IMG/VR virus record: IMGVR_UViG_2585427766_000015
Direction: 5' to 3' (one strand)
From: a virus
Lineage: Duplodnaviria; Heunggongvirae; Uroviricota; Caudoviricetes
Length of the DNA: 37,937 nt
Below, piece by piece: positions 5,449 to 14,501 of the stretch. The number at the start of each line of letters is the position of its first letter. The first letter of the stretch is position 1. The notes under the pieces are model-generated. The model was not told the origin of the DNA. It saw only the letters and a program-made list of their open reading frames with translations, and did not search any database. Both the position numbers and the translations under genes were made by a program.

Positions 5449-5485
5449 TTGCGAGATATGCAAGTGATATTTGCGAGATATGCAA
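5449..5485. promoter_or_regulatory. OL-like tandem operators: two perfect copies of palindromic TTGCGAGATATGCAA, with a putative leftward promoter
   Basis: Copies at 5449-5463 and 5471-5485 match the TTGC-N7-GCAA site in the cI-cro intergenic region; minus-strand TTGCAT -35 and TATCTT -10-like elements overlap them. Confidence 0.5.
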
Positions 5486-5539: not shown

Positions 5540-6232
5540 TTAATTATGTCTCTTAAGGGTTTGCGACTGACTGATTAAGACCTTTCCAAAGACCATGAAT
5601 CGGTGTTCGTTTTCGCTAGTAATTCCCCATTCACGGTAAATCTGGTTATCAGAAATCACCAGCAGTTTGTCAGGAATCATTTGAAGTCTTTTAACGTATA
5701 TTTTGTCATCAAAACCAAAGACATATATACCATCACCATCAAACTGATTGATGCTGACATCAACGAAGATGAGATCTCCTGGCTCAATGGTTGGACACAT
5801 ACTGTCCCCACGAACGTTGATAACTTTGATGTGATTGGCTGGTCGTCCGCCGAACATTGATACAGCATTATCAGTTCTGTATTCGATGGCATGAATCACA
5901 TCAATGACATCACCGCCTTGGATAAGGCCATTTCCCGCACTGGCACTGATATCCAGCATTTCAATACGGAACACATCCTTCACCTGCGCAACATCCTCAT
6001 TATTACTGTTTTTATATACAGTATTACTTTTGTGGGCAGAGGTAAAGAGATCAGCAATATCAACACCTAAGCTCTTGGCAATATTACTCAGTGTTTGTTC
6101 GGTAAATTGTTTTTGCTTACCCGTTTCTAAGCGCGAGATGTTCGCCGCATCTACTCCTATCGCTTCAGCGAGATCGGCGATTTTCATGTTCTTCGCTTGG
6201 CGAAGTTGTCTGACTCGGTTTCCTATGTTCAT
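5540..6232 (-). CDS. CI-like prophage repressor (N-terminal HTH, C-terminal S24 LexA-like autopeptidase domain), 230 aa
   Basis: N-terminal HTH (KIADLAEAIGVDAANISRLETG); C-terminal GDSMCPTIEPGDLIFVD with downstream Lys (Ser-Lys dyad); divergent from a cro-like gene. Confidence 0.9.
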   Translation of the reverse strand: MNIGNRVRQLRQAKNMKIADLAEAIGVDAANISRLETGKQKQFTEQTLSNIAKSLGVDIADLFTSAHKSNTVYKNSNNEDVAQVKDVFRIEMLDISASAGNGLIQGGDVIDVIHAIEYRTDNAVSMFGGRPANHIKVINVRGDSMCPTIEPGDLIFVDVSINQFDGDGIYVFGFDDKIYVKRLQMIPDKLLVISDNQIYREWGITSENEHRFMVFGKVLISQSQTLKRHN

Positions 6233-6329
6233 GCGTTTATTACATTTCTTTATTGCGTGATAAGCAAATCAACTTGCGCAAAATAATTGCGTGAAATAAC
6301 ATGCATAACGCGCAATATTTGGAGGGCAT
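6233..6329. promoter_or_regulatory. Immunity switch region (OR-like operators and divergent promoters)
   Basis: Perfect operator TTGCGTGATAAGCAA at 6253-6267 plus degenerate TTGCG-containing copies (TTGCGCAA, ATTGCGTG, CGCGCAAT); GGAGGG Shine-Dalgarno before cro ATG. Confidence 0.6.
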
Positions 6330-6590
6330 ATGCAATCACCATTACGAAATGTGCGTAAGGCGCATGGTTTCACTTTGCAGCATGTTGCTGCGGGTGTTCA
6401 AGTCAATCCAGCGACGTTGAGTCGTATTGAGAGGCTGGAGCAGATTCCATCTATCGAGCTTGCAGAACGTTTAGCCAATTTTTTTAAGGGTGAAGTCAGC
6501 GAAATGCAGATTCTTTATCCGGCACGTTTTCAATCTAGCCAAAACCAGAATGGGTTTAAACCACAGGAACAGGAGGTGAACCGTGGGTAA
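6330..6590 (+). CDS. Cro-like HTH (XRE family) regulator, 86 aa
   Basis: HTH motif FTLQHVAAGVQVNPATLSRIE; position divergent from the repressor. Confidence 0.75.
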   Translation: MQSPLRNVRKAHGFTLQHVAAGVQVNPATLSRIERLEQIPSIELAERLANFFKGEVSEMQILYPARFQSSQNQNGFKPQEQEVNRG

Positions 6591-10441: not shown

Positions 10442-11437
10442 GTGACCGTGAGAGCACTACTGACCCCTGAAATTGCCCCGCGTATGGGGATTGTATTGTT
10501 CAGGCCAGGTTCAGAGCTGATGCCCCTGTTTATGCAGGGGCGTGTCCTGCTGGAGCCTGAGCCGGAACGTTATTCATCTTTCGCCAGTGGTGCCGTTCCG
10601 GCGGCATCACAACCGCTGGCGGATGATCCTGCCGTTCGGGCCGTGCTCCGCAATGAGGCAGTGATCCGTCGTGCTGGTGGCGTGGAATGTCTTGAAAGCT
10701 GGTTACTTCGTGAAAAGGGCTGTCAGTGGCCTCATTCCGACTGGCACAGCGAGAACATGACCACAATGCGGCACGCTCCGGGAGCAATTCGTCTGTGCTG
10801 GCACTGCGATAACCAGCTGCGTGACCAGTTCACGGAACGGCTGGAATCAATGGCAACGGATAACTGTGCCCGCTGGGTGTTGTCTGTTGTGCGTCGGGAT
10901 CTCGGTTTTGATGATAGTCACGTTGTGACAATGCCGGAACTGTGCTGGTGGCTGATTCGTAATGACCTGGCGGATGCCTTACCGGAAAGTGCAGCCCGTA
11001 AGGCACTGAGATTACCAAAGCCTGTTGTGCCGTCTGTCACCCGGGAAAGTGACCTTGTGCCTTCGGTTCCTGCCACCAGCATCATCCAGGATAAGGCGAA
11101 AAAGGTGCTGGCGCTGAAAGTGGATCCGGAGTCGCCGGAGTCTTTTATGTTACGCCCAAAACGTCGCCGCTGGGTTAATGAAAAGTACACGCGCTGGGTT
11201 AAGACACAGCCGTGTGCATGTTGTGGAAAGCCCGCTGATGATCCCCACCACCTGATAGGTTACGGTCAGGGTGGAATGGGAACAAAAGCGCATGACCTTT
11301 TTGTGTTGCCTTTGTGCAGAAAGCATCACGACGAGCTGCATGCGGATACCGTGGCATTTGAAGAAAAGTATGGCTCCCAGCTGGAGCTGATATTTCGTTT
11401 TATCGATCGCGCGCTGGCAATTGGCGTGCTGGCCTGA
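10442..11437 (+). CDS. DUF968-like protein with C-terminal zinc-binding/HNH-like motif, 331 aa
   Basis: C-terminal CACCGKPADDPHHLIGYGQGGMGTKAHDLFVLPLCRKHHDELH; start may be the internal ATG at about 10484. Confidence 0.55.
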   Translation: MTVRALLTPEIAPRMGIVLFRPGSELMPLFMQGRVLLEPEPERYSSFASGAVPAASQPLADDPAVRAVLRNEAVIRRAGGVECLESWLLREKGCQWPHSDWHSENMTTMRHAPGAIRLCWHCDNQLRDQFTERLESMATDNCARWVLSVVRRDLGFDDSHVVTMPELCWWLIRNDLADALPESAARKALRLPKPVVPSVTRESDLVPSVPATSIIQDKAKKVLALKVDPESPESFMLRPKRRRWVNEKYTRWVKTQPCACCGKPADDPHHLIGYGQGGMGTKAHDLFVLPLCRKHHDELHADTVAFEEKYGSQLELIFRFIDRALAIGVLA

Positions 11438-11452
11438 TTTTTTCGGAGAAAG

Positions 11453-11818
11453 GTGATGCGTGATATTCAGATGGTTCTGGATCGTTGGGGAGCATGGGCG
11501 GCGAGTGATAGTTCAGGAGTAGATTATTCTCCTATAGCTGCTGGGTTTAAAGGGCTTCTTCCCTATACAAGCAAAACACGTCAGGCTTGTTCAGATAGTG
11601 ATGCATTAATTATTGAAGGTTGTCTTGCACGTCTAAAGCAAAAAAGACCTGATGAGCATTCGCTTCTTGTGGCACATTATTTATACAGAATATCCAAGCG
11701 TAAGATTGCAAAGGCGCGTGGAAAGGATGAGAAACTAATACGCATTGAGATACAGATGGCTGAGGGGTTTATTGATGGATGCCTTTCAATTCTGGATGTT
11801 AAACTTGAAATGGATTAG
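11453..11818 (+). CDS. Putative late-gene antiterminator (phage 82 Q-like family), 121 aa
   Basis: MMRDIQMVLDRWGAWAA ... IAAGFKGL ... resembles the small Q-type antiterminators; sits upstream of the late promoter/terminator region. Confidence 0.55.
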   Translation: MMRDIQMVLDRWGAWAASDSSGVDYSPIAAGFKGLLPYTSKTRQACSDSDALIIEGCLARLKQKRPDEHSLLVAHYLYRISKRKIAKARGKDEKLIRIEIQMAEGFIDGCLSILDVKLEMD

Positions 11819-11823
11819 TGAAA

Positions 11824-11841
11824 CCCCGGCTTAAGCCGGGG
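11824..11841. terminator. GC-rich hairpin (CCCCGGC-TTAA-GCCGGGG) between the convergent Q-like and NYN genes; possible bidirectional terminator
   Basis: 7-bp perfect stem with short T-rich flanks on both strands; the NYN stop codon lies in the loop. Confidence 0.45.
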
Positions 11842-12694
11842 ATGTTTCAGATTGAAGTGTTTTTTTCTTGGGCTCGTTCTTAGATGATTTTGTTTTCTTT
11901 TGACGATTGAGTTTTTTCTCTTTGCGTCTGTCAATATAATCGTCCCACCAATCAGGTTTTACTGTTGGGACGATTCTGCAAATATCAGCAATTGCAACAA
12001 CAATGTTGCTCGATTGCACTCCATCGACGTGCTCTGCCAGTGAGGGAGGAACTTGTTGGTTCATTGGATCGAGGATAAAATCTACACCCTTTATACGGGC
12101 ATGTTTAGCGGCAGGAACGAAATCAGCATCGCCAGCAATCAGGACGATCACATCAACTAGTTTCTCATGAGCAAGGATAGTTATATCCATACCAAGCTTA
12201 ATATCGACGGCTTTTTGTTTATATTCGTAGTAGAAATCGTCGTTAGTTAACTCAGACCATTGAATTTCATTACGTAATAGTTTCTTAAGAGTATGTTCTT
12301 TTATTTGCCAGTTACCGACGTTTGAAAGAATACCCATACGAAGTGCCGTTTTACGATTCTTCCTTAGCTCCTCATGAAGCTTGTTTCGTAAAACATTCGG
12401 AGCATGTGTCTTGAAGTTTTTAGTTGATGGGGTTTTGTTGTCTCCATCAGGCAAAGGATACTTAATCTGTTTATCAAGCGGCGGGCAGTCGTAATAGTAA
12501 ATACGGTAAAGCTCAAGTGGTTCACGGTCAGCGTGAGCACCATGTCGAACCTCTACATGAAATTTAACAATTCGCCAGATTATTTTAACAAGTTGTTGGC
12601 TGTCTAACTCATGCCCAGGGAAATGTTTTCGTAGAAAGTAATCAATCCGACGGATGAAGTAGCCGCCGTCAATCAAGACTGCTGTTTTCTTCAT
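11831..12694 (-). CDS. NYN-domain (PIN-like) putative ribonuclease with Lys-rich C-terminal tail, about 287 aa
   Basis: Conserved acidic motifs of the NYN/LabA fold (LIDGGYF, VDIKLGMD, IAGDADFVPA); start taken at the ATG at 12694 (MKKTAV); the ORF track extends to a GTG at 12706. Confidence 0.8.
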   Translation of the reverse strand: MKKTAVLIDGGYFIRRIDYFLRKHFPGHELDSQQLVKIIWRIVKFHVEVRHGAHADREPLELYRIYYYDCPPLDKQIKYPLPDGDNKTPSTKNFKTHAPNVLRNKLHEELRKNRKTALRMGILSNVGNWQIKEHTLKKLLRNEIQWSELTNDDFYYEYKQKAVDIKLGMDITILAHEKLVDVIVLIAGDADFVPAAKHARIKGVDFILDPMNQQVPPSLAEHVDGVQSSNIVVAIADICRIVPTVKPDWWDDYIDRRKEKKLNRQKKTKSSKNEPKKKTLQSETSPA

Positions 12695-12706
12695 TGAAAA
12701 ACTCAC

Positions 12707-13070
12707 AAAAAAAGCTCAGAACCGTTGAGTAGACCCTAAATATTATCTACGAACAGTGCTGAGCTGGTGACGCAATAATTAACTATTGACATTTGCGTTG
12801 TCAACAAATTTTGCACTGTTTAAATGTAAATTTTTTCTGCTGTCAACATATAGTGTCATCTTTGGCATGTTGACACTATATAAACGCTTACGCGGTCCGC
12901 AAAAATAATTGTATCATGTTAAGAGTGGTTACTTCGACTCCTTCCTTAAAACCGCAGTTGAGCGGTTTTTTTGTACCTGTAAACCTGGTGCAGTACAGTA
13001 AACACGCTGGTGGTCGTGAATACTGGCTTTTTATCTTGCTGGCTTTTTAGACAAGAGTTATTGGTATGTC
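12707..13070. promoter_or_regulatory. Divergent regulatory region: NYN-gene promoter and putative late promoter, with repeated TGTCAACA/TGTTGACA motifs and an 11-bp inverted repeat (ATATAGTGTCA ... TGACACTATAT)
   Basis: Several TTGACA-type hexamers and palindromes read directly; followed by the terminator at 12948-12973. Confidence 0.4.
12948..12973 (+). terminator. Intrinsic terminator (tR'-like) upstream of the late operon
   Basis: AAACCGC-AGTTGA-GCGGTTT hairpin followed by a 7-T run; position analogous to lambda tR', where Q-mediated antitermination acts. Confidence 0.6.
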
Positions 13071-13298
13071 ATGTTAACCAGAAGGGAAAAAGACATGCTA
13101 AAACAGCAAGATATGACAGAAACCGCCGCCGTAGTCCTTCATTTCCTACCTGCTGACAAGTGGGTAACGCCACGCATGATGACGAGAACTACCGGAGTAA
13201 GCGAAGCCCGGTGCCAGTTAATACTGACTCAGTTAGTTCTGGCGGGTCTGGCGAAGGATAACGGCGGGTATGGGAATAAATTCAGACGCTGCCAGTAA
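13071..13298 (+). CDS. Small putative winged-helix DNA-binding protein (PapI/FaeA-like?), 67-75 aa
   Basis: Pattern resembles small winged-helix regulators (TGVSEARCQLILTQLVLAGLA); alternative ATG at 13095 has a better Shine-Dalgarno. Assignment tentative. Confidence 0.4.
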   Translation: MLTRREKDMLKQQDMTETAAVVLHFLPADKWVTPRMMTRTTGVSEARCQLILTQLVLAGLAKDNGGYGNKFRRCQ

Positions 13299-13448
13299 TG
13301 GCGGTTTCCTGCTGTGAAAATGGGCGGCTGGTGGGTGTTGGTAGCACCTGCCAGCCATTCGCTCATGCTTACTGGTCACAAGCGAACCACGGCCCACTGC
13401 TTTAGCGCAAAAGCAGAGTGAGCCTACCAGAGTTACGCTTACTGATCC

Positions 13449-14501
13449 ATGAAAAATACTGTAAAAATAAACAGTGTTGATTTAATCAACGCTGATTGCC
13501 TGCATTTTATTCAGTCCCTGCCTGATGATTCCATTGACCTGATTGTTACCGATCCGCCGTACTTCAAGGTGAAACCCAACGGCTGGGACAATCAGTGGAA
13601 AGGGGACGAAGATTACCTTAAGTGGCTGGACCACTGTCTGGCCCAGTTCTGGCGGGGGTTAAAACCTGCCGGAAGCCTTTACCTGTTCTGTGGGCATCGC
13701 CTGGCATCTGATATTGAGATCATGATGCGTGAACGTTTCAACGTGCTTAACCATATCATCTGGGCGAAGCCGTCCGGACGTTGGAATGGGTGTAATAAAG
13801 AAAGTCTGCGCGCATATTTTCCTGCCACAGAGCGCGTTCTGTTTGCTGAACATTACCAGGGGCCATATCGCGGCAAAAGTGACGGCTATGCGGCAAAAGA
13901 AAGGGAACTCAAACAGCACATAATGGCACCGCTGATATCGTATTTCAGGGATGCTCGTGCCGAACTGGGTATAACGGCAAAACAAATTGCCGAAGCCACA
14001 GGTAAGAAAAATATGGTTTCCCACTGGTTTGGTGCCAGTCAGTGGCAGTTGCCGAATGAGGCTGACTATCGGAAGTTACAGGCACTGTTTTCCCGTATAG
14101 CGGCAGAGAAGTTTCAGGAACAACAACTGGAACAACCACACCACCAGCTGGTGGCATCTTATGATTCACTGAATCGCAAATATTCTGAATTGCTGGATGA
14201 GTTTAAATCTCTCCGGCGCTATTTCTCCGTATCAGTCTCCGTGCCTTATACCGATGTCTGGACGCATAAGCCCGTTCAGTTCTACCCGGGTAAACATCCG
14301 TGCGAGAAACCGGCGGATATGCTCCGGCAAATAATCAATGCCAGTAGTCGACCTGGTGATCTGGTTGCTGATTTCTTTATGGGATCCGGTTCCACAATAA
14401 AAGCAGCAATGGCGCTGGGGCGTCGGGCGTTAGGTGTTGAACTTGAGTCAGAGCGGTTTAATCAGACGGTGAAAGAGGTAAGTGAACTGGTGGGGAAATA
14501 A
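13449..14501 (+). CDS. DNA methyltransferase (N6-adenine/N4-cytosine type, beta-class), 350 aa
   Basis: N-terminal DPPY motif (DLIVTDPPYF) and C-terminal AdoMet-binding FxGxG (FFMGSGST). Confidence 0.85.
   Translation: MKNTVKINSVDLINADCLHFIQSLPDDSIDLIVTDPPYFKVKPNGWDNQWKGDEDYLKWLDHCLAQFWRGLKPAGSLYLFCGHRLASDIEIMMRERFNVLNHIIWAKPSGRWNGCNKESLRAYFPATERVLFAEHYQGPYRGKSDGYAAKERELKQHIMAPLISYFRDARAELGITAKQIAEATGKKNMVSHWFGASQWQLPNEADYRKLQALFSRIAAEKFQEQQLEQPHHQLVASYDSLNRKYSELLDEFKSLRRYFSVSVSVPYTDVWTHKPVQFYPGKHPCEKPADMLRQIINASSRPGDLVADFFMGSGSTIKAAMALGRRALGVELESERFNQTVKEVSELVGK

Follow-up and report, generated by a model that had tools for sequence, protein, structure and literature searches.

The intergenic region at positions 12707-13070 of the virus record IMGVR_UViG_2585427766_000015 raises the question of which genes its regulatory elements serve. 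It is part of a stretch of 37,937 nt, hereafter called the window, and it contains several TTGACA hexamers, two palindromic arrangements and an intrinsic terminator. An earlier note on this DNA had combined these elements into a late promoter region, whose short transcript would be terminated unless the Q-like protein encoded upstream antiterminates. Our analysis suggests a different arrangement. We consider it likely that positions 12695-12973 constitute a divergent control region in which two independent modules are fused near 12877: on the left the promoter of an antisense gene for an NYN-domain protein, a moron, and on the right a Q-dependent late promoter (PR').

A probable junction of two modules

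The two halves of the region differ in their relatives. In a BLAST comparison with 50,697 phage records, positions 12707-12876 were without any match, and many matches were found from 12877 on, among them mEp460_4F5, cdtI, Stx2a phages, phiP27 and PhiR40_1. Homology to other phages begins at 12877-12892, and the common part corresponds to 12877-13070. The left half is present in 27 of 5426 E. coli genomes, every time together with NYN. The right half is present in thousands of E. coli genomes, and at least part of the region was found in approximately 3150 of the 5426 complete genomes. Further, the left part adjoins two unrelated Q families, since in Edwardsiella phages it is located next to a lambda-type Q (PF03589).

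In phage Stx2_14040 the shared block starts 12 bp past the Q stop codon. In other phages, unrelated genes, many of them in antisense orientation, take up 0.6-2.5 kb between Q and this block. We conclude that NYN is a moron in a known hot spot, which brought its own upstream DNA. Comparison loci are designated here by L-numbers (for example, L019 is an Edwardsiella variant, L303 is DLP12 of E. coli K-12 and L305 is lambda). The Q stop codon and PR' are between 30 bp and 2.46 kb apart (positions 11819-12876 in the window; also L002, L004, L005, L007 and L303). The cargo of this gap is NYN here, nmpC in K-12 DLP12 and several unrelated ORFs (open reading frames) of 150-340 aa in other phages. Judged by this cargo, the DNA separating Q from PR' is a hot spot of insertion, and the genes inserted there are often antisense and carry their own promoters. 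A second boundary is located farther downstream: phages with a different Q type, for example Ayreon, match only from 12959 on, within the loop of the terminator (BLAST). The terminator, tR', is thus also a module junction.

The whole window corresponds to an E. coli lambdoid prophage, and the 364-bp region was found with 100% identity in 13 complete E. coli chromosomes. The gene order is DUF968, Q (PF06530), NYN (antisense), control region, small ORF, N6-adenine methylase, holin and lysozyme; Q is intact, and so are the lysis and structural genes. The sequence features that had been placed in the 364-bp intergenic region are indeed there, but the limits of the region hinge on the choice of start codons. 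In the identical prophage in RefSeq, the ATG of NYN is at 12694 and the small ORF starts at 13095. The coordinates of all features are listed in Table 1.

Table 1. Features of the control region and of the adjacent genes (positions in the window).
Feature	Position	Strand	Description
Q antiterminator gene	11453..11818	+	121 aa; short QuuD-like branch of the Q21 family; trans-acting partner of PR'
Hairpin CCCCGGC-TTAA-GCCGGGG	11824-11841		between convergent Q and NYN, overlaps the NYN stop; read from sequence
NYN-domain (PIN-like nuclease) gene	11831..12694	-	287 aa; PF01936; antisense moron between Q and PR'
NYN mRNA 5' leader	12707..12765	-	three stacked helices: P1 AGCUCAG/CUGAGCU, P2, P3 GUAGA/UCUAC; then U7 at 12713-12707
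NYN promoter P_NYN	12775..12804	-	-35 TTGACA 12804-12799, 18-bp spacer, -10 AATTAT 12780-12775
Palindrome TTGACA-N7-TGTCAA	12786..12804		right arm is the P_NYN -35, left arm in the spacer
A/T-rich block GAAAAAATTTACAT...TGCAAAAT (NYN strand)	12809..12836	-	upstream of the P_NYN -35
Composite inverted repeat IR2	12841..12881		inner arms ATATAGTGTCA (12848-12858) / TGACACTATAT (12871-12881), N12
IR2 outer arms TGTCAACAT / ATGTTGACA	12841-12849 / 12867-12875		interleaved with the inner pair; hold the third and fourth TTGACA
PR' left edge, A/T tract TATATAAACGC (AAAAATCA in relatives)	12877..12887	+	about -47 to -37
Proposed Q-binding element CGCGGTCCGCA	12891..12901	+	9-bp dyad GCGGTCCGC at 12892-12900, -35 position
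PR' -10 hexamer TATCAT	12912..12917	+	fixed distance from the invariant block
Invariant block AAGAGT-GGTTACTTCG	12921..12936	+	candidate sigma70-dependent pause module; -10-like AAnnnT at -3 to +3
Small 5'-terminal hairpin of the PR' transcript	12923..12940	+	GAGU/ACUC here, GUGG/CCAC in most relatives
Inferred PR' start A12924 (GTTAAG-A-GTGG)	12924	+	by homology to the K-12 DLP12 start
tR' intrinsic terminator	12948..12973	+	stem AAAACCGC/GCGGTTTT (8 bp), loop AGTTGA, T7 at 12966-12972
5'-UTR (untranslated region) of the first late ORF	12974..13094	+	conserved; weak terminator-like hairpin 13006-13027, then TTTTTATCTT

The TTGACA motifs

At least four TTGACA-type motifs had been reported, and this count is correct: TTGACA is present at 12786 (+), 12799 (-), 12841 (-) and 12870 (+), and the octamer TGTCAACA at 12799, 12841 and 12868 (-). 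The 38-kb window contains 14 TTGACA hexamers, four of them within 90 bp. This clustering is non-random, as four copies per 100 bp were obtained in none of 1000 dinucleotide shuffles (P ~5.5e-5 for random placement). Both palindromes of the earlier note are exact, TTGACATTTGCGTTGTCAA at 12786-12804 and ATATAGTGTCA-N12-TGACACTATAT with its arms at 12848-12858 and 12871-12881, and the strong intrinsic terminator, a hairpin followed by T7, was found at 12948-12973 as described. The proposal of a late promoter with a tR'-like terminator close behind it, located after the Q gene and before the genes for the methylase and lysis, is also borne out by conservation, by covariation with the Q class and by the start site in K-12 DLP12.

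What did not hold is the assignment of the motifs to this promoter. If the whole of 12786-12973 were one late control unit, the TTGACA/TGTCAACA motifs would be -35-type elements of the late promoter and sites for a regulator. In line with this, the hexamers match the -35 consensus perfectly and are clustered, and the copy at 12870 is on the plus strand with the terminator downstream. However, the closest plus-strand copy is 36 bp away from the conserved -10 hexamer, so that all motifs are at least 36 bp upstream of it, and neither of the two plus-strand copies has a -10 at 16-18 bp. Moreover, no other phage with this Q class and PR' has the motifs, and homology to these phages is found only from 12877 on. 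The motif-bearing part was only found with NYN and travels with the NYN cassette, even where the adjacent Q is of the lambda type and thus of another family. In PR' itself a TTGACA-like -35 is missing, and a Q-class-specific dyad is in that position. Thus, a single late control unit is most unlikely, and we prefer the reading as two joined modules.

The suggestion that the motifs belong to overlapping divergent promoters for NYN proved partly right. It applies to the TTGACA at 12804-12799, which fits as the NYN -35, and does not apply to the other three copies. By its position, copy 2 (12799-12804) is the NYN -35 and copy 1 (12786-12791) is its inverted partner within the spacer; copies 3 and 4 appear as the outer arms of IR2, between the upstream tracts of both promoters. 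The hexamers at 12786 (+), 12870 (+) and 12846 (-) were also considered as promoters and rejected, because they have no hexamer with A2 and T6 at 16-18 bp.

The late promoter PR'

Positions 12877-12973 have the sequence of a PR' module of the DLP12/QuuD type, which is widespread and belongs to the lambdoid Q/PR'/tR' system. An A-tract upstream of PR' is present in approximately 40 PR' variants, and the A/T tract at the left edge of the module (12877-12887) is a putative UP element. The -10 hexamer corresponds to TAnnnT in 38 of 41 distinct variants and to CAGTAT in the remaining three, while its middle bases vary. Fixed T1, A2 and T6 with free middle bases are the signature of a working sigma70 -10 element. 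The A/T spacer between the dyad and the -10 is variable, and the 19 nt after the -10 are near-invariant (about 40-55 variants). Other -10 positions upstream of TAnnnT were rejected, since their location shifts among the variants.

The start site was transferred from K-12. The Cappable-seq data of Ettwiller et al. (PMC4782308, supplement 1) contain a plus-strand start at U00096.2 576452, at the homologous A in DLP12. A coordinate offset of +777 was the only one that gave purine starts at nine of nine nearby sites, and with this offset the DLP12 start is the A of GTTAAG-A-GTGG, 7 nt past the hexamer. Another, strong start (relative score 90) is located in the nmpC-essD gap at L303 4359 (U00096.3 576858, +), approximately 370 nt upstream of the DLP12 PR' start (score 1.7).

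The block GTTAAGAGTGGTTACTTCG is near-invariant in all four Q classes described below. Within and close to the transcribed region, AAGAGT (12921-12926) is the sole -10-like hexamer that is conserved; in the Edwardsiella variant L019 it is replaced by AACAAT, in which A2 and T6 are kept. Comparison of the sequences revealed that AAGAGT-GGTTACTTCG is strikingly similar to the block AACGAT-GGGTTAATTCG of lambda. The sigma-dependent pause element of lambda is AACGAT, and its +16/+17 pause site is TTCG. Based on this similarity, we propose a candidate sigma-dependent pause near +12/+13 (C12935/G12936). At the 5'-end of the transcript a small hairpin (12923-12940) is upheld by G-to-A and C-to-T changes, by G-U wobbles on the plus strand and by a register shift in the window. 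The support for this hairpin is modest, and it may only stabilize the transcript. All PR' elements of the window fit the consensus of the inducible phages mEp460, cdtI and Stx2.

A dyad that covaries with the Q protein

The product of the Q gene belongs to PF06530 (Phage_antitermQ; E = 8.9e-52, 174.5 bits at a cut-off of 26), as do Q21 and QuuD of K-12, and its direct match to the Q21 structures 6P18 and 6JNX is weak (E = 0.0065). For comparison, 186 loci with a PF06530-type Q and the conserved block were collected and aligned on the block. According to the helix-turn-helix region of Q, these loci fall into four classes. Class A, with ISKRKIAKARGKDEKLIRIEIQ, comprises 72 loci including this window, cdtI and Stx2_14040, and its element in the promoter is CGCGGTCCGCA. 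Class B, with ISLRTIAKKxKCSDGTIRKELQ, comprises 77 loci (for example mEp460_4F5 and Stx2a_1447; element ACGCGTACGCA); class C, with MTFMALARKHGRSDCWVGRLLQ, comprises 33 loci (for example PhiR40_1; element TTTACAATCGTAAA); and class D, with ISARNIAKRQGISHTQILKRLQ, is represented by 4 loci (phiP27; element GCGGAATTCCA).

The class of the helix-turn-helix and the dyad were concordant in 186 of 186 loci, the four classes corresponding one to one to the four elements. The class A element is unchanged in 67 of its 72 loci, over 26 Q sequences, 18 upstream contexts and varied spacers. The other classes have dyads too (GCGTACGC, GGAATTCC and TTTAC-N4-GTAAA), and all centres agree within half a bp; for DLP12 QuuD, a relative of class C, we found the perfect palindrome TTTACGTACGTAAA at the same place. 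The -10 and the start region are common to all four classes, whereas the dyads differ. In the window, the dyad GCGGTCCGC spans -32 to -24, with its centre T12896 at -28. The Q-binding elements (QBEs) of lambda and phage 21 are located between the -35 and -10 positions (PMC6606751). From this location together with the class covariation, we infer that the dyad is a candidate site for docking of the product of the Q gene (11453-11818). An element of the Q21 type, a direct repeat 8 bp apart between -35 and -10, was not found at this site of the window, which is a dyad.

In the mechanism we propose, sigma70 polymerase would start at A12924, using a good -10, the A/T upstream tract and the dyad in place of a -35. 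Q would dock on the dyad centred at -28, and sigma would hold the polymerase at about +12/+13 via AAGAGT-GGTTACTTCG. If Q is absent, the transcript would stop at tR', and if Q is loaded, transcription would read through into the small ORF, the methylase gene and the lysis and structural genes.

tR' and the late leader

The fold of tR', calculated for a stretch of 58 nt, has -15.2 kcal/mol (z = -2.9). The terminator is kept in dozens of related phages, with stem changes that preserve the pairing, and its counterpart in phage Ayreon is annotated as a terminator. An RNA terminated here is predicted to be approximately 47-49 nt long, counted from A12924. Downstream of tR', the perfect direct repeat CTGGCTTTTTA is present twice (13023-13033 and 13039-13049; 16 bp apart), beside the weak hairpin 13006-13027. 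The late leader as a whole (12974-13094) folds no better than shuffled sequences. An Rfam scan of 11400-13600 at E up to 5 yielded only sub-threshold STnc130 and an irrelevant snoRNA. The match to STnc130, a Salmonella small RNA (sRNA) candidate, covers its full length (12940-13076, -; 25.5 bits at a threshold of 55, E = 0.5). It is antisense to tR' and the late leader and may be mere homologous prophage DNA in the seed of this family.

The NYN cassette

The left module contains P_NYN, which with 10 of 12 matches is the best promoter-like site of the region. Transcription is predicted to start at A12768, 3 nt ahead of the leader hairpin. NYN homologues from Edwardsiella, Ewingella, a metagenome contig and Pseudomonas, at 86%, 79%, 68% and 52-55% identity, follow the same plan: TTGACR, 17-18 bp, a -10 hexamer and a hairpin within a few nt. 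Upstream of the -35, TGTAAATTTTT and TTTTGCA are kept in L019, L020 and L021 at the same distance, and the A/T block 12809-12836 is probably a UP element.

The leader hairpin (12765-12713), with the conserved apical loop AnUnnUUAG, is followed by U7, a weak Shine-Dalgarno sequence and the ATG at 12694. It folds with -23.5 kcal/mol (z = -3.1). In nine enterobacterial and Pseudomonas homologues, 92% of the cells in the alignment are paired, compared to 26-45% in slid controls; four of 19 pairs are changed on both sides, and the U-G wobbles fit the NYN-sense strand only. Distant NYN homologues in Actinobacteria, Firmicutes, spirochaetes and marine Gammaproteobacteria have a different hairpin at the same place. 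A hairpin directly upstream of the NYN start, often with a U-run, was observed in the window, L019, L021, L025, L111-L116, L117-L139 and L309. Firmicute-type leaders approach the Rfam family RF03535 (TEG147) with 54 bits (L028) and 43 bits (L124) at a threshold of 56.1; the window leader gave no match to it even at E up to 5. We know of no previous description of a link between NYN and TEG147.

With its start at +4 and a U-run at its end, the leader resembles a constitutive attenuator in form. We infer that it either limits NYN expression or is itself targeted by the nuclease. In the proposed order of events, strong sigma70-dependent transcription from P_NYN with its A/T upstream tract would produce the leader from +4 on, and the hairpin with U7 would limit or regulate NYN, possibly as a target of the nuclease. 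At the other end of the gene, the hairpin 11824-11841 is a probable 3'-end signal for both Q and NYN. PADLOC revealed weak NYN hits only, without a defined defence system. Aptamers of the Guanidine-III and Guanidine-II riboswitches are located approximately 200 nt downstream of the NYN homologue in two actinobacterial loci (L121 2068-2132 and L133 2030-2073). They probably concern the neighbouring gene and not NYN.

The -35 palindrome and IR2

Between the two promoters are the inverted repeats, which need a separate consideration. In IR2 the right arms overlap, and therefore the inner and outer pairings are mutually exclusive. IR2 folds on either strand (z = -2.7 and -3.3). At its position, L019, L020 and L110 have ATATATAGT...ACTATATAT and L021 has TGGTGT...ACACCA. 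In these counterparts both arms are changed, the loops have 12-20 nt overall (16-20 in the L019 and L021 types), and TTGACA is not present. No further copy of the IR2 half-site beyond chance was found in the window, and scans of metagenomes and genomes for IR2 variants yielded one informative new lineage (L309), which has no IR2-like repeat. Since IR2 accompanies NYN even beside the lambda-type Q (PF03589), it belongs to the cassette and not to Q and PR'.

The palindrome 12786-12804 is a possible operator. Extending this to both palindromes, one may propose that they are operators for a host regulator or for the NYN protein, which would repress P_NYN and may modulate PR'. This is compatible with two joined modules, but we regard it as rather doubtful. 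The -35 palindrome recurs as TTGAC-N6 to N9-GTCAA in L019, L021, L025, L116 and L309 (with 8-bp arms in L309), the position of IR2 is kept while its arms change together, and the right arm of IR2 overlaps -53 to -43 of PR' and thereby its upstream tract. On the other hand, the cassette encodes no regulator, and the spacing of the half-sites (N6 to N9 in the palindrome; loops of 12, 16 and 20 nt in IR2) is unusual for a fixed dimer. In addition, some NYN homologues (L111 and L112-115) have no palindrome. A search for a regulator gene linked to NYN in other genomes found none; NYN is solitary in varied contexts.

The immunity operators of the prophage are readable in the window: TTGCGAGATATGCAA is present twice to the left of the cI-like gene (5449-5485), and TTGCGTGATAAGCAA and a TTGCGCGTTATGCAT-type site (6253-6315) are located between the cI-like gene (5540-6232, -) and the cro-like gene (6330-6590, +). 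The palindromes were rejected as CI/Cro operators of the prophage, because the consensus TTGCGnGATAnGCAA of these sites matches 12793-12807 at chance level only and IR2 not at all, which also weighs against the reading as operators. Sites for sigma54, LexA (CTGT-N8-ACAG), OxyR and IHF and RutR-like sites were rejected too; they do not fit the consensus sequences and are not kept in L019 and L021. The IR2 right arm has the 9-mer GACACTATA in common with the SP6 promoter. We regard this similarity as a coincidence, with approximately 0.3 occurrences expected per 38 kb and no conservation in relatives.

Alternatively, IR2 could act at the level of RNA. An antisense extended -10, TGATACAAT (12916 to 12908), would give rise to a leftward transcript in which IR2 forms a hairpin; NYN would thereby gain a second, long leader, and this promoter would compete with PR' for polymerase. 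TGnTAYAAT is found in all three NYN-linked variants (the window, L019 with TGATATAAT and L021 with TGCTATAAT), the variable loop and the co-varying arms suit a hairpin better than a protein site, and an antisense TACAAT or TATAAT is common there in moron-carrying PR' variants. However, a -35 is missing from this promoter, its TG and some bases of its hexamer are at the same time under constraint from the PR' -10 on the opposite strand, only three related lineages are concerned, and mismatches in the arms carry no strand signal. We therefore regard such a transcript as improbable, more so than operators. The antisense extended -10 (12908-12916, -) overlaps the PR' -10 by 2 bp, and the K-12 start-site list comprises plus-strand entries only.

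It is tempting to speculate further, and quite tentatively, on how the elements could work together. Short Q proteins of the QuuD type (113-127 aa) might bind as two protomers to a two-fold site at -28 that replaces the -35, unlike Q21, and capture the polymerase at a sigma-dependent pause about 12 nt from the start, with classes that could be swapped via a dyad of 8-14 bp. The NYN cassette might be a mirror-image unit of promoter, hairpin and U7, whose leader would be the nuclease's own target and whose expression would be inversely coupled to late-promoter occupancy via IR2 and the antisense promoter.

Points against a Q-dependent late promoter joined to a moron promoter

Several points weigh against the arrangement that we favour. 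For the prophage of the window, our reading is based on anatomy, conservation, covariation and the start site in K-12. PR' lacks a recognizable -35, the best candidate being TTACGC. The signal of the DLP12 PR' start is weak (relative read score 1.7), and the transfer of the start site rests on an inferred coordinate offset. The candidate pause element overlaps the start (-3 to +3), and known pause elements are located at +1 or later (PMC6606751). The covariation between dyad and Q could partly reflect physical linkage, though morons of up to 2.4 kb intervene in most loci. Further, the dyad contrasts with the direct-repeat site of Q21, the sole structurally studied relative. A simple terminator scan did not call tR', and the NYN leader has no obvious alternative (antiterminator) fold. 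Finally, IR2 and the -35 palindrome are conserved and yet outside the model, so that a further regulator may exist.

Some of these points would also be explained if the late switch were a relic, with a dead promoter or terminator, or with late genes under another factor, as is reported of RpoE for DLP12. The weak start in DLP12 and the missing -35 are in line with this, and RpoE and Hha were reported as further inputs in DLP12 (PMC7918800). In the window, however, Q and the lysis and structural genes are intact, the PR' elements agree with the consensus of the inducible mEp460, cdtI and Stx2 phages, and the PR' module is under strong purifying selection. A relic is thus very unlikely, and a Q-dependent PR' remains our preferred interpretation of the right module.

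Comparison with known systems

The nearest relative of the right module is quuD-PR'-essD of DLP12. Its Q belongs to the same Pfam family, PF06530, and PR' has the same anatomy (position of the dyad, TAnnnT -10, block GTTAAGAGTGGTTACTTCG and a CCCGCC..GGCGGG terminator with T-run). Like the window with NYN, DLP12 harbours an antisense moron, nmpC, between Q and PR'. It differs in the moron and the lysis genes, in the dyad (TTTACGTACGTAAA instead of GCGGTCCGC) and in the recognition class of Q (C-like instead of A). The lysis operon of DLP12 was reported to be under a Q-type antiterminator (PMC7918800); the paper on pR' in Viruses (2018) does not dissect the promoter.

Phage 21 is similar to the window in that Q21 belongs to PF06530, the Q site lies between -35 and -10, and the late genes follow (PMC6606751; bioRxiv 10.1101/651190). 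The terminated RNA has approximately 49 nt (annotated start 1374, terminator end 1423), as predicted for the window. However, the 8-mers bound by Q21 contain TGAGCA and form a direct repeat (ATTGAGCA and AATGAGCA) in contrast to the dyad of the window (PMC6606751; bioRxiv 10.1101/651190), and pR'21 has the consensus -35 TTGACA, which PR' of the window lacks. The pause element TAAGCTG of phage 21 is at +2 to +8, and the candidate of the window is at -3 to +3. Q21 has 162 aa and a long loop in the helix-turn-helix, while Q of the window has 121 aa.

The same logic is known from PR'/qut/tR' of lambda with its 6S RNA: the promoter is always active and contains a Q site, and a terminator precedes the late genes. 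The sigma70 pause of lambda has a candidate counterpart in the window. Lambda differs by a Q of the unrelated family PF03589, a good -35, a pause element starting from +1 with the pause at +16/17, and a terminated RNA of approximately 194 nt compared to approximately 49 nt in the window. In the 6S RNA region of lambda (L305, about 210-223), TGGTCACTTCGAC is located approximately 75 nt after the PR' start. The same 13-mer is present in the start region of the QuuD-type PR' variants L088 and L102 (GAGTGGTCACTTCGACAC). It could be left over from an older PR' or have a function common to both.

The RNA predicted for the window can also be compared to StxS, a PR'-tR' short RNA of Stx phages with the role of a regulatory sRNA (PMC7547250), with which it shares that it is short, constitutive and derived from an antiterminated late promoter; the PR' module is also found upstream of stx2 in several Stx2 phages. 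StxS, likened here by description only, differs in that a PR'-tR' transcript of 258 nt is processed to 74 nt and in that another Q type is involved (PMC7547250). For the left module, TEG147 (RF03535) is the closest described RNA. It is a 60-nt RNA of S. aureus, classed as cis-regulatory and of unknown function (PMC5826253). A TEG147-type hairpin is found directly upstream of Firmicute-like NYN starts, and the window leader is in the same place, but the inner helix and the loop sequences differ.

Implications

In summary, the left module is an ordinary moron promoter with a conserved leader, and the right module is ordinary lambdoid late control; two points are worth a follow-up, the dyad-type Q site and the conserved leader RNA of NYN. 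The identification of these modules is of interest for several reasons. PR' of this very common prophage type is marked by the dyad, TAnnnT and GTTAAGAGTGGTTACTTCG, and not by an obvious TTGACA, which is of value for annotation, since the module is present in DLP12 of K-12 and upstream of stx2 in several Stx phages. Further, a structured leader is conserved in this family of NYN nucleases over a range of bacteria from Proteobacteria to Firmicutes. Last but not least, the four pairs of Q class and dyad provide a code for the specificity of QuuD-type antiterminators. It includes the antiterminators upstream of stx2 and could help to predict the Q alleles behind given toxin or lysis operons.

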